Shown here: positions 2,086-61,881 of the stretch, piece by piece
How positions within the stretch are numbered: the first letter of the stretch is position 1
How the letters are laid out: the number at the start of each line of letters is the position of its first letter
Assembly (NCBI GenBank): GCA_964016885.1
Contig: OZ024750.1
Location: 52,948,001-53,012,000 of the forward strand
Origin: Eledone cirrhosa
Lineage: Eukaryota
Reading direction: 5' to 3'
Length of the DNA stretch: 64,000 bases
Position numbers and translations under genes: made by a program
Notes under the pieces: model-generated
What the model was told of the DNA's origin: nothing
Databases searched by the model: none
Seen by the model: only the letters and a program-made list of their open reading frames with translations

Positions 2086-5000
2086 TCATCATCATCATCG
2101 TTTAACATCCATTTTTCCATCAACTTTGATTGCCTGCACCTTTTTATACAGCTATCATCCTTCATATGCATCATATGTCCATACCAACACAATCTCCTCT
2201 TCTGTACACTGCATCTGATTGCCTAGTTGCTCTCTCAGCTTATTTATGCTTTGCTATTCATGTATGACACAACCATCGGAACATGCATGCTTCGTTTCTT
2301 TCCAATCTTCACAAGTCCTCTGCACACAATGCCCAAGTCTCACTACCAGGCAACTTTGCTGTTCATATGCACCATACAATCAGCCCTTCATTCTGAGGAA
2401 AACACCTTTTGTTGTTAGTAGTGGTAGTAACTCCCTGAACTTTTTCCATCCCGTTCTTACTCTGGCTATTGTGTTTTCAGAACACCCTCCTTCACTGCTA
2501 ATCCCATCACGGAGGTAACAGAAATTGTCTATTATTTTTACAGAACCCTCTGGGCATTTGTAGGGGATGGTATCCTGTGGGCACTTGCTACTTACAGCAC
2601 CTGTGCATCAGTTGCATATAAAACGTACATTCTTTGATAGCCTGCTCGTGATCCCACTACATCTTTTATGTACCCATAGCTTGCACTTGGGACAGGATGG
2701 AATTTCTACCTACTCTTTTCCTGCACACTGAGCAAAACCATTTCCCAGAGGGGATCCGGACCCTATTTTCCTTTCTACATACTAGGACTTTAATCTTAGA
2801 CAAGTTAACTTTAAGACCCTTAGATTCTAGGCCATGCTTCCAGGTTTGGAATTTCTTCACTAAATCTGCCATAGATGCAGCTATGAGAGTTAGATCATCT
2901 GCATACAAAAGTTCCCATGGGCAGCCAGTCTTAAAGTTCTCCATTATAGCCTGAAGAGCAACAATAAACAGGAAGAGGCTAAGGACAGGGCCTTCATGAA
3001 GACCTACCTGCATGCTAAATTTTTCACTATATTCATTGTTAATTCTAACCTTGCTGACTGTTCCTCTATACATGGCTTGTATAGCTCTCATGAGCCACTC
3101 ATCTATTCCTAGTTTTCTAAGACCCCACCAGATAATAGAACAGGGGATTCTGTCAAAGGCTTTCTCCAGGTCAACAAAAGCTAAATAGAGGGATTTATTT
3201 TTAGCTTGGTGCTTCTGCAGTTGTCTCACGAGGAAGAGAGTATCCATGGTACTTTTATCTCGCACAAAGCCAAATTGCATTTCCTCGAGTTTAATTCAAT
3301 CCCTAATCAGCGGCGCAATAACTCTTTCTGTGACCTTCATGACCTGGTCAATTAACTAAATGCCTCTACAGTTTTCTCTGTCTAGAGTGTTTCCTTTGCC
3401 CTTGTAGCAGTTGACGATGATGCTGCTACACCACTCATTGGGTATGACACCACTTTATATTACTTCGCTTACAATTGTGATCTTGGTGTGGCCCACCATC
3501 CCAGATGCTTTCAGCATCTCAGCAATTATCCTCCAAAATCCAGCTGCCTTGCCAGTCTTCGTATCTTTGATTGCTATTACTAACTTGCACAGTCGGTCCC
3601 TCTGTTTGGTCAATTTGGGGTAAACTATCTGTATTCCATTCATTCTCCTCGTTTAGTAATCTTTCATAGTGGCACTTCTATGCTACCTTGTTATCAGCAT
3701 CAGTGAAGGCAAGTACTCTGTTATCATCGCAGACACACTTCTCCCCAACGACATCACAATTTTCCTTGATACATTGCCTCAATCCTGAACAGCTCAAGCC
3801 TTTGGTCCTCTCATTGCAAAACATGCTTAAAATTTGTATCTTCTGCTTCCCTTTTTGCAAAGTACACTTGTCGCCTAGCTTCTCTCCAAGCCTCCTATCC
3901 CACCCTTTTCCTCTTATCCTGCCATTTTCCCCCTATCCCGCCATTTTCCCCCCTATCCTGCTATTCTTTCCATGCCTGTCTTCTAGCCTTAATTATCTAC
4001 TCCACCCTACTGTTCCCCCACCAAAGTACTCTCCTTCTCCCATTCTTTCCAGGCCTTAATTGTCTCCTCCACCCTACTGTTCTCCCACCAAAGTACTCTC
4101 CTTCTCCCATTCTTTCCAGACCTTAATTATCTCCTCCACCCTACTGTTCTCCCACCAAAGTACTCTCCTTCTCCCATTCTTTCCAGACCTTAATTATCTC
4201 CTCCACCCTACTGTTCTCCCACCAAAGTACTCTCCTTCTCCCATTCTTTCCAGGCCTTAATTATCTCCTCCACCCTACTGTTTCCCCACCAAAGTACTCT
4301 CCTTCTCCCAAGAGACCTGCTCCATCCTCAGATTTCATTTGTCATCTTCAGTAGGTTATCTTTCAGGAATTCCCACTGCTCCTATATTGTATGTCTTTAT
4401 TTGCTCATCAAGTAACATACTTCTAAATTTGTTACTGACTGTCGGGTCCTTCAACTTTCACATTCTTCTCCTCAAGGTTGTCCTCTGTCATTGAGTGCGT
4501 CTAGTCTTGACTATGAGGTGACTAACTATTAGGCTATGTTGGGAGGTGCATTCTTCACAAGGAAGGGACTTTGTGTTTATAACAGTCACTCTGTCTCATC
4601 TTCTGGTAAGGATAAAAATCTATCTGGCTGGTGTGCTCACCAGTGATCAGATGATTGTCTCGTTTTTTGAGGTTTGTGCTATAGATAATTAGGTCATTTG
4701 CATCACATAATTCCAGGATCCTGAAACCTTCCTCATTTCTAGTACCAAACCCCCAACCTCTGTTGTAGCCATCACAGTATTGTCCAACATGCCCATTAAC
4801 CCTTTAATGTTCACACCGGCCAAAACTGGCCAGAATTCTCTACCTTTTTCTGTTGAAACTGGCTGTAACTGGTCACTCAAAATAAATACTTTCAAAATCT
4901 CATAGATTCGATATTATTTGAGATAATTATGCGAGATAAAGCCTTTACCATGAAATAGAGTAATGTGAATACTAAAGGGTTAAAGTCACCAGCAATAATT

Positions 5001-7379: not shown

Positions 7380-8945
7380 TTGGTTAAGAGGTGCCTACTG
7401 ACTAAGTTTCACTTTGTACATAGGCAAGTCGGGTCTTCTGTATTACTGCGTAGCGCCAAAGATCTCGGTCCAGTGACATTGTCTTAGAGAGGTGCAAATG
7501 TGTAAGGTCGGAATTTATCAGATCGTCCCAGGTTTTTCTGGGTCTTCCTACTCCGTAACTACCATCAATTTTGCTCGCCCTGCACTTTTTTTATACAGCT
7601 GTCTTTCATGCGCATCACGTGGCCATACCAACATAGTCTTCTCTCGAGTAAACAGCATCTGATCCCTCTTATTCCTAATTTATCACTTAGTTCATTTATG
7701 CTTTGCTGTTCACCTATATTACTATTACACATCCAGCGGAGCATGCATGCTTCGTTCTTTCCAGTCTGTGCAGGTCCTCTGCACACAATGCCCATATCTC
7801 ACTGCCATGTAGCATTGATGTTTGTATACAGGCATCATGCAATCTGCCTTTCATTTTTAGAGAGAAACCTTTTGTGGCCAACAGCAGTATCAGCTCTCTG
7901 AACTTTTTCCATCTCGTTCTGACTCTGACTACTGTACTTTCAGAGCACCCTCCACCACTGTTGATTTCATCACCCAGGTAACGGAAAGTGTCCACTATTT
8001 CTATAGAACCATCTGGGCAATAGAACCAGCTAGTATCCTGTGGGCACTTGCTACTTATTGCACCTGAGCATTGGCCACATATAAAGTCTACGTTCTTAGA
8101 TAGTTTACCTATGATCCCACAACATCTTTTATGTACCCATACTTTGAATTTCTGCCTACTCCTTTCCTACACACTGAGTATGGCCATTTCCCTTAGGGCA
8201 CCTGTGCCCTATTTTCCTTTCTACAAACTAGAACTTTAGTCTTAGACAAGTTAACTTTAAGGCCTTTTGATTCTAGGCCATGCTTCGATGTTTGGAATTT
8301 CTTCTCTAGTTCAGCCATAGATTCAGCTATGAGAGTTAGATCATCTGCGTATAGGAGCTCCCATGGGCAGCCGGTCTTGAACTCCTCTGTTATAACCTGA
8401 AGGGCAATAATAAATAGGATGGGGCTAAGGACAGAGCCTTGATGAACACCAACTTTTCCACTAAATTCTTCACAATATTCATTGTTAATTCTAACCTTAC
8501 TGACTGTTTCTTTATACATAGCTTTTATAGCTCTCACAAGCAATTCATCTACACCTAGTTTACTAAGAGCCCACCAAATAATAGAGTGGGGGACTCTGTC
8601 AAAGGCTTTCGCCAGGTCTACAAAAGCTAAGTAGAGGGGTTTATTTTTAGCTAGGTACTTCTCCTGTACTTGTCATACAATGAAAAGAGCATCTGTGGTA
8701 ATTTTACCTGACACAAAGCCAAACTGCATTTCATCTAGATCAATTCGCTCTCTGATTAGTTGCGCTATAACTCTTTCTGTGACCTTCATGACCTGGTCAA
8801 CTAACTTAATGCCTCTATAGTTTCCTCTATCTAGAGCATCTCCTTTACCCTTGTAGCAGTTAATGATGATGATGCTACACCAGTCTTTTGATATGACTCC
8901 ATTCTGTATTACTTGGTTAACTATACGGGTGACCATAGTATGTCC

Positions 8946-12205: not shown

Positions 12206-14720
12206 GTCCCCACTGTGAATGTGGTTGGTGTAATCTCAATAGCTGGTCCCTCTGTCGGGTCTACAGGGGGTAGTTTCTCTCTCTCCCATTCGTTCTCCAC
12301 ATTCATTAGCCTCTCATAATGACATTTCCAGGCCTCCTTTTTCTGATCATTCATGAAACCAGCATCATTCCAGACACATTTATCTTCAACAACATCCTGA
12401 TTTACACTGACACACTGCCTTGCAATGTGGAACACTGCAAGTCTCTGATCTTCCCATTGCAGGACATTGGCAAACCTCCTACTCTCAGCCTCCCTGCGTG
12501 CTAAGTACACCTGATGTCTAGCTTCTCTCTTAGTGGCTGTATATCCTTCTCTACTCCCACCCTTTTCCCAAGCCTTCCATGCTAGTCTTTTGTCTCTAAT
12601 GGCCCTATCTACCATGCTGTTCCACCACCAGGTCACTCTCTGTCTGGTCGGAGCTCTGCTCCAGCCACAAGTTTCTTTCAGTAGCCTGCAGTAAGCTGTC
12701 ACGTAAGAAATTCTAGTTATTATCTATGCCATACGACTCTAAAACGTCTTCTTTCTCATCATACACATCTTAAAGGTGAAAGGTCTTTTAGTTTCCAGAC
12801 CTTCCTTTTTCACACCTTCCTGTATGTCTCATTTTGTCTCTTGCTTATTGAGATGTCACTAACAACTAACCTATGCTGTGGGGTACATTCTTCCCCGAGG
12901 TATGCCTTGGTATTTGACCCCATCTGTCTGTCTCACTGCCTAACTAGAAAGAAATCAATCTGGCTTATATGCTCGCCTGATTTGTAGGTTATTAGGTGGT
13001 TGGTAGGTTTCTTGAAGTTAGTGTTGCAAATGGTTAGTGTACTTGCATCACAAAATTCAAGAAGCCTCACTCCTTCTTCATTTCTTGAGCCATAACCATG
13101 ACCACCATGTACCTCAGTGTATCCATCCTGGAGCTGTCCAAAATGACCATTAAAGTTACCTGCTAGCATAACGATGTCTCTGTCCTCTGTCATTGTGGCT
13201 GTTTCTAAAAGTTGCTTGTAAAAGCAGTCCTTCTCTTCTTTACCTAGGCCCACCTGGGGAGCCTAGGCAGAGATGATTGTCAGTAGTCTCTTGCCTACAA
13301 CTAATCTAAGCTTAATTATTCGATTATTAACTCTAACTACCTGTATTGTCTCAGCCAAGAAAATGCCTACTCCCCCTGACCCATCATCATTACCCACCCA
13401 GAAAAGCTTATAACTAAGATGTTTGCCTGCGATTAGTCTCGCTGAGGCACCTCTCCATCTCACCTCTTGCATGCGGCACACATTCACATGTCTTCTCTCC
13501 AGCATCTCCTCTATTTCACCAGATCTACCTGTTAGAGTGCCAATATTAAGTGTGGCAACTCTGAGATTTGACGTCTTCATATTCTTGTTCTTGTTCCTGT
13601 TGTGCGATTGCTTGATGACGGTCGAGGGGTTCTCACACATGGCCACACTAGCCACCCCACTACCGTACGCAGCCCTAACATGGTTAGTGTTATTGCTGTT
13701 TACACAGTTGTTGCAATTCTTATTTGTTGTGCTCATAGTTTTTGGCATTAATATATACTGGTTGGATGCCCTTCCTAACACCAGCACCACTTTACAGCAT
13801 GGACTAGGTGCTTTTATTCGTGCCACCAGCACTAGAGAGGTTGTCTTACTGGACTCAGGGGCCCTCTCTACCCCTCCATTTTACAGCATGGACTAGGTGC
13901 TTTTATTCGTGCCACCAGCACTAGAGAGGTTGTCTTACTGGACTCAGGGGCCCTCTCTACCTCTCAATTTTACAGCATCGACTAGGTGCTTTTATTCGTG
14001 CCACCAGCACTAGAGAGGTTGTCTTACTGGACTCAGGGGCCCTCTCTACCCCTCCATTTTACAGCATCGACTAGGTGCTTTTATTCGTGCCACCAGCACT
14101 AGAGAGGTTGTCTTACTGGACTCAGGGGCCCTCTCTACCCCTCCATTTTACAGCATCGACTAGGTGCTTTTATTCGTGCCACCAGCACTAGAGAGGTTGT
14201 CTTACTGGACTCAGGGGCCCTCTCTACCCCTCCATTTTACAGCATGGACTAGGTGCTTTTATTCGTGCCACCAGCACTAGAGAGGTTGTCTTACTGGACT
14301 CAGGGCCCCTCTCTACCCCTCCATTTTACAGCATGGACTAGGTGCTTTTATTCGTGCCACCAGCACTAGAGAGGTTGTCTTACTGGACTCAGGGGCCCTC
14401 TCTACCCCTCCATTTTACAGCATCGACTAGGTGCTTTTATTCGTGCCACCAGCACTAGAGAGGTTGTCTTACTGGACTCAGGGGCCCTCTCTACCTCTCC
14501 ATTTTACAGCATGGACTAGGTGCTTTTATTCGTACCACCAGCACTAGGGAAGTTGTTTTACTGGACTTAGGGGACTCCTCTACCCAGCACCAATTTATTC
14601 GGAGTGGAAGCTCTACTAGATGGGTTGCCTACACTATGGCTTACGGAGCCTTCATCCACCCCTTGTCTGTCCTATGCTATACTCACGAGGGAATGGTTAG
14701 CATACAGCGTCAGGCATGTA
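12206..14720 (-). mobile_element. 5' half of an RTE LINE: 5'UTR (with 89-bp expansion) + APE endonuclease region, 3'-truncated
   Basis: ORFs 13263..13832 (LRVATLNIGTL, MQEVRW, GVGI, ISA), 12933..13253 (GNFNGH, RNEEG, SQIDF) and 12148..12702 (TWWWN). Confidence 0.85.
13791..14585. repeat. 89-bp tandem repeat, about 9 near-identical copies
   Basis: Unit TTTACAGCATGGACTAGGTGCTTTTATTCGTGCCACCAGCACTAGAGAGGTTGTCTTACTGGACTCAGGGGCCCTCTCTACCCCTCCAT; starts at 13791, 13880 and onward. Confidence 0.95.
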
Positions 14721-28244: not shown

Positions 28245-30070
28245 CTAATCTACATGGGGTGTACTGATATGACTTTGTTCGTGTCTAGTCAAACCAGCTT
28301 TACTCATGCAGACTCGACCATAGTGCTGGCAAACCAGATGTTGTTCAACAGCAGGCACTTCAGAACAGTCCCTTTTCCTCACCTTCCTTTTCAATGTTAG
28401 GTGTTCTCTCCGACGGGTTTCAAAGTGTTCACTACCTGACTTGATCAAATGTCTCCTCTTCACACGCTCCTCAGCCATTTTCTCCCATTCGTCAGATGAA
28501 ATTCCAGCGCAACCCAAGGTGCCCCTGACACAGTCCCGGTACCACATTTTTGGTTTGTGTGGTGGTCGCCTTCCATTGCACATTTCACTGTAGAGAAGTT
28601 GCTTTGGAATACGATCATCAGACATCCGGACCACGTGACTGCACCACCTCAACCGATGCCGAAAGATCATTTTCTCTATTCTCCTACACCTGTTCTGTTC
28701 GAAAACTTCCAAATCACTGATTTGCACCCCAAGTAACTTACAAAGAGATTGTTAGTGAAACCTCTCCAGTTCCTTGAGGTACTTTCTGTATGTGACCCAC
28801 GTTTCACTAGCATAAAACAAAGAGGAGACGACACAAATAAGATACACTTTTACCTTGGTTTCAATGGTGATACCTCGCCTGGACAATAAACGTTCATTCA
28901 GCTGTCCAAAAGCATCACTGGCTTTCTTGATTCTTAAGGATATTTCATCATCAAGTGTGCATGATATGTTCAACGTACTACCAAAGTAAACAAACTTATC
29001 AGCAACTTTTAGCCTCTTTCCTTACATGTACACACTTGGTGTAGTATATTCTTTCCCAGGTGTTGGCTAGTACATACCAATCATCTTGTCCAAGCCTATT
29101 GTGAGGCCCAAAGCACTGCAAGCTTTAGAAAAACAGTTCATAATATGCTGCATGTCACTTTAAGGAAAAAGATCGCAGTCTTTTATATACAAAAAAAAAA
29201 CAAAAAAAACTCTTGGATTATAGATGTTAATACCTTCATGCTTGCACCAAAGCGCCTGATGTTGAACAACCTTCCTGAAGTGTGATACCTGATGTAAACT
29301 CCATACAAACAATTTTTTCTGAATGCCTTGAGAAACACTATCATCATCATCATCACTGCTTTTCCCTGCTTGCAAGGGTGGGACGGGAACTGATTCTGGC
29401 TTGATTTCTACAGCTGGATGCCCTTCCTAACACCAACCTCATTTACAGTGAGTGCTGGGTGCTTTTCTTTTTGCCGTGGCACCTCCACGACCACTTTGCA
29501 GTGGAATGATAGGGATCCCAGTCCCTATCATCTCATTTCTACAGCTGAGTAAACTGGAGCAATGTGAAATAAAGTGTCTTGCTCAAAGAAACAACACATC
29601 ACCCAGTCTGAGAATTGAACTCACAACCTTTCGATTGCAAGGCCAATGCTCTAACCATTAAGCCATGTGCCTCCATAAAATATAAAGAAAACAGAGTTGG
29701 AGCCGGAATGTCCCCCTGCGTCATTCCATTTTAAACTTATATTGGTTCAGAGATGCTACCACCAATACTGATCCAAGCCTTCATGTCATCATGATAAAGT
29801 CAGAATTTTCACAAACTTTGGAGGGCAGCCAAGTTTTTCCAAAATTTTCCACAACGCAGTTCGATTGACAGTCTCAAAGGCCTTTACCAAGTGAACAAAG
29901 ACTTGGTAAAGGTCCATACATTGCTCCATACAATTTTCTTGCAGAAAAGATCATATCCATTGTTCCTCTTTCGTTTCTGAATCCACACTGCGACTCAGGC
30001 AACACATTCAAAGCAACCTTTGAGATCAATCTATCCATCAAAATTCGACGCCTGACTTTACCAACTACTG
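28245..30070 (-). mobile_element. Degenerate BovB-like RTE LINE, interrupted by a SINE
   Basis: ORFs with LPESQCGFR..GTMDMIF, LFYASETW, HRLRWCSHVVRM...RIPKQLLYSE and a degenerate C-terminal C2H2-like motif. Confidence 0.85.
29340..29674 (-). mobile_element. tRNA-derived SINE, near-identical to 26645-26988
   Basis: Reverse-complement match along the full length. Confidence 0.85.
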
Positions 30071-38832: not shown

Positions 38833-38879
38833 ATTAGTTACCTGAAGAGCAGTAAAGGCGAAACTGAGTAGTAACTAAT
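38833..38879 (+). ncRNA. Type I hammerhead ribozyme (minimal, PLE-type)
   Basis: ATTAGTTAC CTGAAGA GC-AGTAAAG-GC GAAAC-TGA-GTA GTAACTAAT: perfect 9-bp stem I, intact core, predicted GUA cleavage after 38870. Confidence 0.85.
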
Positions 38880-38956
38880 TCTGACTATAACAAATGTTTA
38901 CACACTAATATTGTATTGAGGACTTTTTCATAGCACTTGTAAACTTATGCATATTG

Positions 38957-44532: not shown

Positions 44533-46261
44533 ATAAATGCTCTGAAATAGCGATATATATGTGAATATAGACATAGAATATTCGAAAATATTCTGTATGT
44601 TTATAATAAACATTTTGAAGACCTAATCGCTATAGAATAGAATACGTCACGTATTACAATTAGATTCTCGATAAAAGCAAGGGAAGTAATCTACGCGTTT
44701 CATTCTCGTAAGAAATCATCAGGACTACATATCCAGTGCTTTTATCGAGAATGACACAGCTAGAGACTTATAGAATACTTAGCTGTGTACAGGAACTGGT
44801 TTGAAAGAGCGGTTGCCGGTCCGGCAGAAATTAGAAATTGGAATAAATGCTCTGAAATAGCGATATATATGTGAATATAGACATAGAATATTCGAAAATA
44901 TTCTGTATGTTTATAATAAACATTTTGAAGACCTAATCGCTATAGAATAGAATACGTCACGTATTACAATTAGATTCTCGATAAAAGCAAGGGAAGTAAT
45001 CTACGCGTTTCATTCTCGTAAGAAATCATCAGGACTACATATCCAGTGCTTTTATCGAGAATGACACAGCTAGAGACTTATAGAATACTTAGCTGTGTAC
45101 AGGAACTGGTTTGAAAGAGCGGTTGCCGGTCCGGCAGAAATTAGAAATTGGAATAAATGCTCTGAAATAGCGATATATATGTGAATATAGACATAGAATA
45201 TTCGAAAATATTCTGTATGTTTATAATAAACATTTTGAAGACCTAATCGCTATAGAATAGAATACGTCACGTATTACAATTAGATTCTCGATAAAAGCAA
45301 GGGAAGTAATCTACGCGTTTCATTCTCGTAAGAAATCATCAGGACTACATATCCAGTGCTTTTATCGAGAATGACACAGCTAGAGACTTATAGAATACTT
45401 AGCTGTGTACAGGAACTGGTTTGAAAGAGCGGTTGCCGGTCCGGCAGAAATTAGAAATTGGAATAAATGCTCTGAAATAGCGATATATATGTGAATATAG
45501 ACATAGAATATTCGAAAATATTCTGTATGTTTATAATAAACATTTTGAAGACCTAATCGCTATAGAATAGAATACGTCACGTATTACAATTAGATTCTCG
45601 ATAAAAGCAAGGGAAGTAATCTACGCGTTTCATTCTCGTAAGAAATCATCAGGACTACATATCCAGTGCTTTTATCGAGAATGACACAGCTAGAGACTTA
45701 TAGAATACTTAGCTGTGTACAGGAACTGGTTTGAAAGAGCGGTTGCCGGTCCGGCAGAAATTAGAAATTGGAATAAATGCTCTGAAATAGCGATATATAT
45801 GTGAATATAGACATAGAATATTCGAAAATATTCTGTATGTTTATAATAAACATTTTGAAGACCTAATCGCTATAGAATAGAATACGTCACGTATTACAAT
45901 TAGATTCTCGATAAAAGCAAGGGAAGTAATCTACGCGTTTCATTCTCGTAAGAAATCATCAGGACTACATATCCAGTGCTTTTATCGAGAATGACACTGC
46001 TAGAGACTTATAGAATACTTAGCTGTGTACAGGAACTGGTTTGAAAGAGCGGTTGCCGGTCCGGCAGAAATTAGAAATTGGAATAAATGCTCTGAAATAG
46101 CGATATATATGTGAATATAGACATAGAATATTCGAAAATATTCTGTATGTTTATAATAAACATTTTGAAGACCTAATCGCTATAGAATAGAATACGTCAC
46201 GTATTACAATTAGATTCTCGATAAAAGCAAGGGAAGTAATCTACGCGTTTCATTCTCGTAA
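44533..46261 (-). mobile_element. Retrozyme-like 310-bp tandem array, left arm (about 5.6 units, HHR on minus strand)
   Basis: Unit starts at 44533, 44843, 45153, 45463, 45773 and 46083. HHRs at 44686-44728 + 310n (5 complete, 1 cut by the inversion). Confidence 0.92.
44686..44728 (-). ncRNA. Type I hammerhead ribozyme (representative left-arm copy)
   Basis: Reverse complement of the motif at 46444-46486. Confidence 0.88.
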
Positions 46262-49200
46262 ACATACAGAATATTTTCGAATATTCTATGTCTATATTCA
46301 CATATATATCGCTATTTCAGAGCATTTATTCCAATTTCTAATTTCTGCCGGACCGGCAACCGCTCTTTCAAACCAGTTCCTGTACACAGCTAAGTATTCT
46401 ATAAGTCTCTAGCTGTGTCATTCTCGATAAAAGCACTGGATATGTAGTCCTGATGATTTCTTACGAGAATGAAACGCGTAGATTACTTCCCTTGCTTTTA
46501 TCGAGAATCTAATTGTAATACGTGACGTATTCTATTCTATAGCGATTAGGTCTTCAAAATGTTTATTATAAACATACAGAATATTTTCGAATATTCTATG
46601 TCTATATTCACATATATATCGCTATTTCAGAGCATTTATTCCAATTTCTAATTTCTGCCGGACCGGCAACCGCTCTTTCAAACCAGTTCCTGTACACAGC
46701 TAAGTATTCTATAAGTCTCTAGCTGTGTCATTCTCGATAAAAGCACTGGATATGTAGTCCTGATGATTTCTTACGAGAATGAAACGCGTAGATTACTTCC
46801 CTTGCTTTTATCGAGAATCTAATTGTAATACGTGACGTATTCTATTCTATAGCGATTAGGTCTTCAAAATGTTTATTATAAACATACAGAATATTTTCGA
46901 ATATTCTATGTCTATATTCACATATATATCGCTATTTCAGAGCATTTATTCCAATTTCTAATTTCTGCCGGACCGGCAACCGCTCTTTCAAACCAGTTCC
47001 TGTACACAGCTAAGTATTCTATAAGTCTCTAGCTGTGTCATTCTCGATAAAAGCACTGGATATGTAGTCCTGATGATTTCTTACGAGAATGAAACGCGTA
47101 GATTACTTCCCTTGCTTTTATCGAGAATCTAATTGTAATACGTGACGTATTCTATTCTATAGCGATTAGGTCTTCAAAATGTTTATTATAAACATACAGA
47201 ATATTTTCGAATATTCTATGTCTATATTCACATATATATCGCTATTTCAGAGCATTTATTCCAATTTCTAATTTCTGCCGGACCGGCAACCGCTCTTTCA
47301 AACCAGTTCCTGTACACAGCTAAGTATTCTATAAGTCTCTAGCTGTGTCATTCTCGATAAAAGCACTGGATATGTAGTCCTGATGATTTCTTACGAGAAT
47401 GAAACGTTCCCTTGCTTTTATCGAGAATCTAATTGTAATACGTGACGTATTCTATTCTATAGCGATTAGGTCTTCAAAATGTTTATTATAAACATACAGA
47501 ATATTTTCGAATATTCTATGTCTATATTCACATATATATCGCTATTTCAGAGCATTTATTCCAATTTCTAATTTCTGCCGGACCGGCAACCGCTCTTTCA
47601 AACCAGTTCCTGTACACAGCTAAGTATTCTATAAGTCTCTAGCTGTGTCATTCTCGATAAAAGCACTGGATATGTAGTCCTGATGATTTCTTACGAGAAT
47701 GAAACGCGTAGATTACTTCCCTTGCTTTTATCGAGAATCTAATTGTAATACGTGACGTATTCTATTCTATAGCGATTAGGTCTTCAAAATGTTTATTATA
47801 AACATACAGAATATTTTCGAATATTCTATGTCTATATTCACATATATATCGCTATTTCAGAGCATTTATTCCAATTTCTAATTTCTGCCGGACCGGCAAC
47901 CGCTCTTTCAAACCAGTTCCTGTACACAGCTAAGTATTCTATAAGTCTCTAGCTGTGTCATTCTCGATAAAAGCACTGGATATGTAGTCCTGATGATTTC
48001 TTACGAGAATGAAACGCGTAGATTACTTCCCTTGCTTTTATCGAGAATCTAATTGTAATACGTGACGTATTCTATTCTATAGCGATTAGGTCTTCAAAAT
48101 GTTTATTATAAACATACAGAATATTTTCGAATATTCTATGTCTATATTCACATATATATCGCTATTTCAGAGCATTTATTCCAATTTCTAATTTCTGCCG
48201 GACCGGCAACCGCTCTTTCAAACCAGTTCCTGTACACAGCTAAGTATTCTATAAGTCTCTAGCTGTGTCATTCTCGATAAAAGCACTGGATATGTAGTCC
48301 TGATGATTTCTTACGAGAATGAAACGCGTAGATTACTTCCCTTGCTTTTATCGAGAATCTAATTGTAATACGTGACGTATTCTATTCTATAGCGATTAGG
48401 TCTTCAAAATGTTTATTATAAACATACAGAATATTTTCGAATATTCTATGTCTATATTCACATATATATCGCTATTTCAGAGCATTTATTCCAATTTCTA
48501 ATTTCTGCCGGACCGGCAACCGCTCTTTCAAACCAGTTCCTGTACACAGCTAAGTATTCTATAAGTCTCTAGCTGTGTCATTCTCGATAAAAGCACTGGA
48601 TATGTAGTCCTGATGATTTCTTACGAGAATGAAACGCGTAGATTACTTCCCTTGCTTTTATCGAGAATCTAATTGTAATACGTGACGTATTCTATTCTAT
48701 AGCGATTAGGTCTTCAAAATGTTTATTATAAACATACAGAATATTTTCGAATATTCTATGTCTATATTCACATATATATCGCTATTTCAGAGCATTTATT
48801 CCAATTTCTAATTTCTGCCGGACCGGCAACCGCTCTTTCAAACCAGTTCCTGTACACAGCTAAGTATTCTATAAGTCTCTAGCTGTGTCATTCTCGATAA
48901 AAGCACTGGATATGTAGTCCTGATGATTTCTTACGAGAATGAAACGCGTAGATTACTTCCCTTGCTTTTATCGAGAATCTAATTGTAATACGTGACGTAT
49001 TCTATTCTATAGCGATTAGGTCTTCAAATGTTTATTATAAACATACAGAATATTTTCGAATATTCTATGTCTATATTCACATATATATCGCTATTTCAGA
49101 GCATTTATTCCAATTTCTAATTTTCTGCCGGACCGGCAACCGCTCTTTCAAACCAGTTCCTGTACACAGCTAAGTATTCTATAAGTCTCTAGCTGTGTCA

Positions 49201-49390
49201 TTCTCGATAAAAGCACTGGATATGTAGTCCTGATGAATTCTAACAAGAATGAAACGCGTAGATTACTTCCCTTGCTTTTATCGAGAATCTAATTGTAATA
49301 CGTGACGTATTCTATTCTATAGCGATTAGGTCTTCAAAATGTTTATTATAAACATACAGAATATTTTCGAATATTCTATGTCTATATTCA
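46259..49390 (+). mobile_element. Retrozyme-like 310-bp tandem array, right arm (about 10.1 units, HHR on plus strand)
   Basis: HHR motifs start at 46444, 46754, 47064, 47374 (deleted copy), 47674, 47984, 48294, 48604, 48914 and 49224. Confidence 0.92.
46444..46486 (+). ncRNA. Type I hammerhead ribozyme (representative right-arm copy)
   Basis: GTAGTC CTGATGA T-TTCT-TACG-AGAA-T GAAAC-GC-GTA GATTAC: stem I GUAGUC/GAUUAC, palindromic stem III ACGCGU, predicted cleavage after A46480. Confidence 0.88.
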
Positions 49391-49403
49391 TATATATATA
49401 TAT

Positions 49404-60796: not shown

Positions 60797-61150
60797 CTGT
60801 TTTACGTCCATTTTTCCACGTTAACATGGGTTAAACGAGTTGTCCTGTTGTGGGCAATGTCTTGCTCATACAAAACTGATTTTGGCTTGATTTCTACAGC
60901 TGGATGCCCTTCATAACATCAACCACATTTACAGTGAGTACCGGGTGCTTTTTGTCGTTTCACCTACACGACCACTTTAGTGTGGGCTGGGTGCTTTTTA
61001 CTGTATCACCATTATGACCGCTCTACAGTGTGGGCTGGGTGCTTTTTACCGTATCACCATCACAACCACTCTACAATGTGGGCTGGGGGCCTCATTGGAT
61101 GTATACCTGTCCTCATGGGAAATGCATTGTGGGGCATACTGTGTATATGG
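60797..61150 (-). mobile_element. RTE 3'UTR fragment
   Basis: TTTCTACAGCTGGATGCCCTTC tail motif; homologous to about 6570-6850. Confidence 0.7.
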
Positions 61151-61164
61151 CCTGTATGTGTGTG

Positions 61165-61224
<60 letters not shown>

Positions 61225-61291
61225 CAAGGTTTAGCAAATAAGAAAAAGTTTCAAAATAAATTTAAAAAAATTCACTGTATTTACTATGGTT

Positions 61292-61378
61292 ACCTTTACC
61301 GAATCGGTTTCGAGTCTCAAAAATAAATGGAAAGTCCCTGCGGGCTTCCATTGAAAAGATAAACTCTCGTCAGAAGGT
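61292..61378 (-). ncRNA. Type I hammerhead ribozyme with a long stem II
   Basis: Minus strand: ACCTT CTGACGA GAGTTT..AATGGAAG-CCC-GCA-GGG-AC-TTTCCATT..AGACTC GAAAC-CG-ATT-CG-GTA AAGGT. All core residues and all three stems are intact. Confidence 0.88.
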
Positions 61379-61706
61379 TCAATTCACTCGGAGAATATAA
61401 AATTCCCGAGTTCAAATTACGAACTGGCGCTATTCAAAATTGTTCCCGAGATGAGAATGAATGATGTGGAAGCAATTCTGTCCAGTGCCGCGTGTAAAGA
61501 TAGAACCATGAGGCAGGGATGTCAGTCTACAACCACTATAAATAGCAGCAGTCAAAATGACCAGATTTCATCTCGACCGGGGGAGATTAATAATAATAAG
61601 GTATAGATCCCTACACGCGAAAAACGAATAAGAACACATGTATTATCCAAACATATGCAAATGTGGTTCAATGTATATATATGTATATATGTATATATAT
61701 ATATAT

Positions 61707-61881
61707 GTAGGCAGACCCAGAAAAACCTGGGACGACCTGATAAATTCCGACCTCACACACTTACACCTCTCCAAGACAATGTCACTGGACCGAGACCTAT
61801 GGCGGTACTCAATAATAGAGAAGACCCGCCTTACCTAAATACAAAGTAAAACCTATTACAGTCAGTAGGCATCTCTAACAA
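61707..61881 (+). mobile_element. Short internal RTE fragment (GRPRKTWDD region)
   Basis: Near-identical to about 26055-26225. Confidence 0.85.

Follow-up and report, generated by a model that had tools for sequence, protein, structure and literature searches.

The window, the 64,000-nucleotide stretch of DNA that was analysed, belongs to contig C10 of a genome that totals 3.0 Gb and is assembled into 1796 contigs; the region is rich in TA and other microsatellites, and the host is by inference an animal. On its minus strand, from 61673 down to 61216, lies a 458-nt copy of a repeat unit of 486 nt, corresponding to unit positions 29-486 and thus truncated at the 5' end. Thirty close copies gave a consensus to which it is 95.6% identical. 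An earlier note on this DNA had described an island at 61222-61670 between TA tracts; the tracts are indeed present on both sides, but the limits of the island had to be moved to 61673 and 61216. The (TA)n target tract (61165..61222) is found on the 3' side of the insertion, and a TA-rich tract (61674..61709) adjoins the truncated 5' junction. The 3' end of the copy, end A, is a TATATAT that is internal to the unit (61216..61223, minus strand), located 81 nt past the predicted cleavage site of the ribozyme described below and fused to the host TA tract. End A is the commonest fixed 3' end in the family. The second fixed end, site B, is a TAT-rich segment at unit positions 100-114 (61588..61602, minus strand), which the window copy reads through.

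Inside the copy, a type I hammerhead spans 61292..61378 of the minus strand; near the ribozyme, window positions equal 61702 minus the unit position. The layout proposed earlier was confirmed on this strand: the core CUGACGA (61373-61367), a 5-bp stem I (61378-61374 with 61296-61292), 55 nt between the core and GAAA (61311-61308), stem III with the elements ACCG/AUU/CGGU (61308-61298), and a GUA triplet after which cleavage is predicted, between 61297 and 61296. Stem II (61312..61366, minus strand) has the length of about 55 nt given to it, but it is not one helix. It consists of a 6-bp base (61366-61361/61317-61312), an 8x8 internal loop and a distal hairpin (61352-61326), with compensatory pairs in base and hairpin among subfamilies. 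Two further minus-strand elements are predicted. The segment at 61379..61386 would be the 5' strand of a pseudoknot, forming 8 bp with the stem II internal loop at 61359-61352, and a hairpin that starts at the cleavage site (61226..61296) would sequester the 3' strand of stem I in full-length or circular RNA. Standard Rfam models miss this hammerhead shape: the covariance search that the earlier note had suggested gave no hammerhead match, either over the whole window at the gathering score or over 61150-61750 at E 10.

Other elements were seen in the same window. At 44533-49399 there is an unrelated hammerhead array with a 310-bp unit, in which 5.6 units stand inverted against 10.2 units, 99% alike; its layout is the same, with two arms that both run into TA tracts and whose end points are about 25 nt apart on the unit. 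The 486-nt unit had been regarded as unrelated to this array, and the best blastn E value of 3.1 agrees with a second, independent hammerhead family. The core scan also returned a short type I hammerhead-like motif on the plus strand (38834-38880; CUGAAGA ... GAAA) with a 9-bp stem I and a 2-bp stem II. Fragments of non-LTR retrotransposon reverse transcriptase (RT) and endonuclease (Pfam RVT_1, Exo_endo_phos) occur on the minus strand at 2666-3295, 8193-8672 and 13263-13880, and a weak tRNA-like match (29604-29667, minus strand, 29.9 bits) is possibly the head of a SINE.

The view of the hammerhead as solitary does not hold at genome scale. A first look at the genome gave 2208 candidates for the island, and the best 40, which were those scored, align over the full length at 91-96%. 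Exact matching gave 904 hits for end A (the 3' end followed by TA, including a few variants of internal junctions), 649 for the 3' half of the ribozyme, 595 for the head-to-tail unit junction and 95 for one variant of end B, whereas reversed-pattern controls for end A, the unit junction and end B gave 0. The unit, defined from 30 copies, has a GC content of 37%, and its consensus contains no long ORF in six frames; T-runs in the sense strand argue against Pol III. Several subfamilies exist, 80-98% alike; a CpG decay test was set aside because it is confounded by the differences between them. A few copies are segmental duplicates (the L101 pair). A diverged copy of the ribozyme region (70%) lies next to a young copy (L011:2290-2415), and older subfamilies may extend beyond our sample. 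Reads from three sequencing runs of one sample behaved like fragmented contigs of a many-copy repeat.

The similarity search suggested for the island thus returned head-to-tail copies elsewhere. The longest array found, among 40 of 3007 candidates scored, measures 1529 nt or 3.1 units and begins at unit position 416. Copies holding two full ribozymes (at least 649 nt) make up 12 of 156 A arms. The island itself, with 0.94 unit and one ribozyme, counts as a near-monomer under the scheme of Li et al. (2026), and the label of retrozyme remnant that it had been given is borne out in so far as the family is tandem and non-coding and the island a truncated member of it. The window copy, which stopped after 458 nt and has one ribozyme and two pseudoknot mismatches, is likely a dead end.

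The isolated 95-mer folds with all three helices at its minimum, and its stability is ordinary (z -1.15; 27 of 200 shuffles are as good). Our verdict that the fold exceeds chance is based on compensatory changes among the copies, not on the fold energy of the 95-mer. Homologous copies that keep the stems are present, and among 153 distinct copies two-sided changes were found at the pairs 327-407 (UA 138, CG 9), 336-390 (GC 138, AU 8), 338-388 (GC 129, AU 14, UA 3) and 352-374 (UA 118, CG 25). Columns varying in 7 or more of these copies number 0 of 12 in the core and 13 of 27 in loops. On a tree of 214 copies each two-sided change is limited to one clade, which corresponds to about five events in three lineages, and sliding the partners by 1-3 columns as a control gave at most 1 double-changing pair. 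With 44 hand-picked copies across subfamilies, there were 30 double-change cells against 6.4 in shuffles, none of 500 being as high; the number of double-changing pairs is a weaker signal (5 vs 3.1; 37 of 500).

The compensatory changes sit in helices I and II. Helix III is paired in 97.7% of cases and has no double changes; its loop is variable. Palindromes of the kind found in dimer-type ribozymes, ACCGUACGGU or ACCGCGCGGU, are present in 24 of 214 copies; for the dimer type we followed the rule in PMC4209133. For the whole unit the fold has a z of -4.3, with eight double changes in the predicted structure. Some of them overlap the helices above, and six of the eight fall outside both the hammerhead helices and the 8-bp pseudoknot helix. 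Judged from sequence comparison, the hammerhead motif is real, comprising a type I core and three helices with helix I open, and self-cleavage is predicted. On the same evidence the ribozyme fold has been under selection, and compensating mutations maintain the hammerhead.

The predicted pseudoknot involves unit positions 316-323, the 8 nt on the 5' side of stem I, which pair with positions 343-350, the 5' strand of the stem II internal loop. Seven or eight of the 8 pairs can form in 173 of 198 copies, compared with 54 of 3960 control 8-mers. One compensatory change was found in this helix (AU 175, GC 16). One of its pairs fails to form in 53 of the 198 copies. In the window copy the strand reads UGAAUUGA where the family has UGAAAAGA; the change of AA to UU leaves two mismatches and 6 of 8 pairs, with a duplex energy of -3.7 vs -7.7 kcal/mol. 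Because the helix crosses stem I it would be a pseudoknot, and it may brace stem I and stem II. Perreault et al. (2011, PMC3088659) showed that fast cleavage depends on pseudoknots of this kind.

Folding of the full unit gives a different picture from that of the isolated motif. The hammerhead fold is then 4-5 kcal/mol above the computed minimum, with a stem I probability near 0, partly because a hairpin at 406-476 takes the 3' strand of stem I; variation in this hairpin is mostly one-sided and keeps the structure. The expectation that the ribozyme should fold as a monomer is thus right for the isolated motif but not for the full unit. It is plausible for the subfamily of the window copy, but this copy has lost two pseudoknot pairs and other subfamilies have the palindromic, dimer-type helix III. 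The modeled folds suggest a ribozyme that would cut during transcription and be shut afterwards. A different role of the 8-bp helix, as an off-switch that keeps the ribozyme shut so that cutting requires a protein or a dimer, would suit its place in the computed inactive minimum, where stem I and the base of stem II are open. The palindromic helix III found in part of the copies also bears on this reading, and the hammerhead of an Anolis Penelope-like element (PLE) was reported to cut solely when protein was present (Frangieh et al., 2024, PMC11167929). On the other hand, the helix occupies bases that, one shared base excepted, are free in the hammerhead fold, and it abuts the end of stem I and lies 1 nt past the base of stem II, which is the geometry described by Perreault et al. 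(2011). Moreover, the folding program is unable to draw pseudoknots. We consider the off-switch the less probable of the two roles.

The ends of the copies provide a footprint of insertion. Copies end either at site A (486) or at site B (100-114), about 110 nt apart, and both ends are fused to (TA)n, while the 5' ends are variable. Position 100 as the second end gave 10 exact matches; the commoner end is at 106-114. After 8 internal, 2 short-flank and 13 duplicate matches had been dropped, the A-anchored set comprised 158 arms. An adjacent inverted arm is present in 41 of these, ending at 100-119 in 35 cases; conversely, 63 of 95 B-anchored arms have an inverted neighbor, 49 of which end at 480-486. 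TA is found at the 5' junction too in 81 of 115 solo A arms, as it is in the window copy, and within TA tracts target-site duplications are unreadable. Several 5' ends of both A and B arms cluster at unit positions 29-46, including that of the window copy (29), possibly owing to a transcription start or a structural stop. Another small TA-inserted family with a minimal hammerhead (CUGAUGA ... GAAACAG) and inverted pairs was noticed in the flanks of several loci, among them L209:5750-5900 and the upstream flank of L027.

A purely DNA-level origin, in which a satellite-like repeat with a relic ribozyme spread through recombination or duplication, finds some agreement in the segmental duplicates mentioned above. 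It does not account for fixed 3' ends combined with random 5' ends, for inverted arms and unrelated flanks, or for compensatory changes in RNA structure between subfamilies, and we regard it as extremely improbable. The footprint instead suggests that a PLE helps insertion of the 486-nt unit, and the candidate helper is a PLE of Neptune type. PLEs with a GIY-YIG endonuclease are abundant in this genome (10597 first-look candidates, 150 scored). The loci L191 (G000:C1:145870500-145877000), L192, L196, L199 and L202 belong to a PLE family in which Pfam identified RT and GIY-YIG domains and which has a CX4CxxC linker as in Neptune or Nematis. This family is a candidate for the helper and offers a case for the question of circular templates in an autonomous PLE. 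In L191-type PLEs a type I hammerhead lies upstream of two TA-fused ends, at distances of about 80 and 145 nt, and these ends are used on opposite arms. Given such elements, the unit might be the pseudo-LTR (pLTR) of an autonomous PLE with rare ORF-bearing copies, and the island an ordinary 5'-truncated PLE end, close to the PLE terminal repeat that the earlier note had proposed. The local PLEs share the two-ended, TA-fused layout with direct and inverted arms, and their ribozyme, located about 80 nt upstream of an end, is similar (CCUU/AAGG stem I, GAAAC..GGUA site). Against this stand the many exact head-to-tail junctions with no ORF between the units and the lack of a long ORF in the unit. 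In a sample of the family comprising 424 distinct arms, none proved to be joined to a PLE ORF. No common flank recurred at a fixed position, either in the 176 free 5' flanks or in the 21 non-standard 3' flanks, and PLE ORF fragments occurred in seven loci, at none of which they lay at a junction. The window contains no PLE ORF. No significant sequence match linked the unit to 50 PLE loci (best blastn E values 0.048 for 30 loci and 0.064 for 20 loci), and global alignment with the best-looking PLE end scored 83, against 82 for shuffles. The word CGTGTAGG, common to the tails of unit and PLEs, and the stem I that they have in common were not above shuffles either. As no ORF-linked copy was found in the arms sampled, the unit is better described as a non-autonomous retrozyme than as a PLE end, and a pseudo-LTR seems quite improbable.

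If a PLE is the helper, its template may have been a circle or a linear multimer. A cleaved linear monomer would allow just 81 nt to be copied from A, and 133 of 156 A arms go further, which means that the template was a circle or an uncleaved multimer; 41 of the 156 are longer than one unit. Under the linear alternative, the helper is unchanged but the template is a multimeric transcript of two- or three-unit copies or of an unassembled master array, the ribozyme trims some 5' ends, and no circle is made. The 5' ends lend it some weight. At unit positions 404-425 there were 29 ends in the pooled early passes where 14.5 were expected (p 5e-4, or 0.10 after scanning all windows; of the two choices, the cleavage site had been fixed in advance but the width of the window had not). 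In paired B arms, 12 of 45 ends followed the predicted site, with 2.7 expected. The longest array starts at position 416, and unprocessed RNA was reported to be the main PLE substrate (Frangieh et al., 2024). However, the excess is absent from late passes (4 vs 5.4) and from those B arms to which the A sample led (1 of 24), and a first sample of 92 arms, which included some internal junctions, had no pile-up at the predicted cleavage site. The modest excess hints at cleavage in vivo, and pausing at a folded ribozyme would look alike. Furthermore, copying that truncates at the 5' end only shortens and cannot lengthen linear templates, which makes a circle the simpler source, and the family has persisted through its subfamilies with no array longer than 3.1 units found. 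Units within a locus also behave like copies of one monomer: tandem units differ by 3.6% and inverted arms by 4.2%, with a median near 8% to other loci, and no unit-position difference recurs in more than 3 of 46 pairs. Private variants shared between tandem units number 4 in those 46 pairs, too few to prove one RNA molecule as their source. Among solo A arms, the stop rate rises from 1.3 to 4.9 per 1000 nt after 377 nt, about fourfold beyond 380-390 nt, near where a circle would return to site B; a sharp one-lap step was discarded, since a smooth curve fits almost equally (log-likelihood -623.1 vs -621.6). Overall, the linear template is a minority possibility in our judgment, although an uncleaved linear multimer would explain equally well why copying passes the cleavage site.

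The explanation we prefer, with a probability of about 0.7, is that the island is a truncated copy of a 486-nt, tandem, non-coding and non-autonomous retrozyme that the RT-endonuclease of a Neptune-type PLE copies into TA microsatellites from circular or uncleaved multimeric RNA. We count as observed the unit and its copy number, the covarying ribozyme, the two fixed ends, the TA targets, the tandem and inverted arms and the lack of an ORF. Points against this explanation are that helix III has no double change and the pseudoknot has one, and that the 8-bp helix, which is present in the computed minimum, could belong to an alternative fold that is inactive. The proposed cycle would start with transcription of two-ribozyme copies, which have at least 649 nt and account for 12 of 156 arms. 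The pseudoknot-braced ribozyme would cut during transcription, before the downstream hairpin forms, and ligation of the released 486-nt piece would give a circle that keeps its ribozyme in a closed fold. Based on the footprint and on Frangieh et al. (2024), the PLE protein would nick both strands of a (TA)n tract, and reverse transcription would begin internally at site A or site B. One start would yield a solo arm and two starts an inverted pair, the intervening 110 nt being the PLE "tail". Copying would then run back past the cleavage junction and the unit junction and stop at a variable point.

It is a more tentative reading that the copies record the whole retrozyme cycle: a pseudoknot-braced hammerhead that cuts in vivo, a self-silencing 486-nt circle, and a PLE dimer that primes at two points and completes up to three laps. 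We give this full version somewhat less than an even chance. If true, the genome would supply evidence that retrozymes take the circular-RNA route proposed for them, and perhaps that PLE pseudo-LTRs form in this way. A circular-RNA route and a PLE helper have been proposed in the discussion of the mobility of animal retrozymes and the role of the hammerhead in PLEs (PMC7229834; Li et al., 2026; Frangieh et al., 2024). Published experiments bear on the role of cutting: cleavage was dispensable in vitro for a PLE (Frangieh et al., 2024, PMC11167929), and only 1 of 9 Xenopus retrozyme dimers was cleaved (Li et al., 2026, 10.64898/2026.07.22.740005). The family yields testable predictions: it specifies where cleavage should occur, the two points of priming and the length of the circle, it includes a naturally broken variant of the predicted pseudoknot, and its genome offers candidate helper ORFs. 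In the literature covered, no paper on the 486-nt family or on end-mapping of retrozyme insertions was found; subscription journals, Repbase, Dfam and supplements lie outside this scope, and the supplements may describe this family or fold.

In comparison with known systems, the family has the testable features of a metazoan non-LTR retrozyme, of which it is likely a new member, and its expression as linear and circular RNA is predicted. As described for these elements (PMC7229834; Li, Clavereau and Pollet, 2026), the unit is short, non-coding, arranged head to tail and highly self-paired, with one type I hammerhead and a low GC content (37% here); copies range from monomers to small multimers, and autonomous PLEs are present in the host genome. 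Two consecutive complete ribozymes, by which Li et al. (2026) recognize active elements, occur in the 12 A arms mentioned above. The unit of 486 nt is longer than the 150-450 nt usually quoted for metazoan retrozymes, but inside the 51-972 nt of Li et al. Differences from the published descriptions are that copies are mostly dispersed and truncated instead of forming arrays, that the 55-nt stem II has a likely pseudoknot and the ribozyme is predicted to be shut in the circle, and that no sequence link to a pLTR was found for the unit.

Among the endonuclease-containing (EN+) PLEs, those of Neptune type resemble the family in their partial tandems, an adjacent inverted 5'-truncated copy, a tail at one end and (TA)n targets (Craig et al., 2021, PMC8557442), and EN+ PLEs also have a hammerhead near the end (Cervera and de la Pena, 2014, PMC4209133). 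Unlike them, the unit has no RT-GIY-YIG ORF between repeats in the 424 arms sampled. Its tail is about 110 nt, compared with 30-40 nt published for PLEs and about 65 nt in the local PLE family, and its hammerhead has a canonical C3-G8 core with a helix III of 3-4 bp, whereas the local PLE has a minimal U3-A8 motif. In vitro work on the Poseidon PLE of Anolis showed that reverse transcription starts at two internal points, that these bound the tail, and that both DNA strands are nicked and then extended (Frangieh et al., 2024, PMC11167929). That element would share with ours the two start sites that define a tail and the use of both DNA strands, and it likewise has AT-rich targets and copying past the ribozyme site. 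Poseidon's start site is not homologous to the target, whereas both ends of the unit lie in TA-like motifs that match (TA)n, and the unit, unlike Poseidon, is non-autonomous. In the pseudoknotted hammerheads of Perreault et al. (2011), as predicted here, a Watson-Crick helix joins the stem I side to stem II and replaces loop-loop contacts; here the partner would be an internal loop, that of the long stem II of a repetitive animal type I motif, a layout that the figures or supplements of that paper may also show. The class of element is already known, and the novelty probably lies in a family with an unusual long-stem-II, likely pseudoknotted hammerhead.
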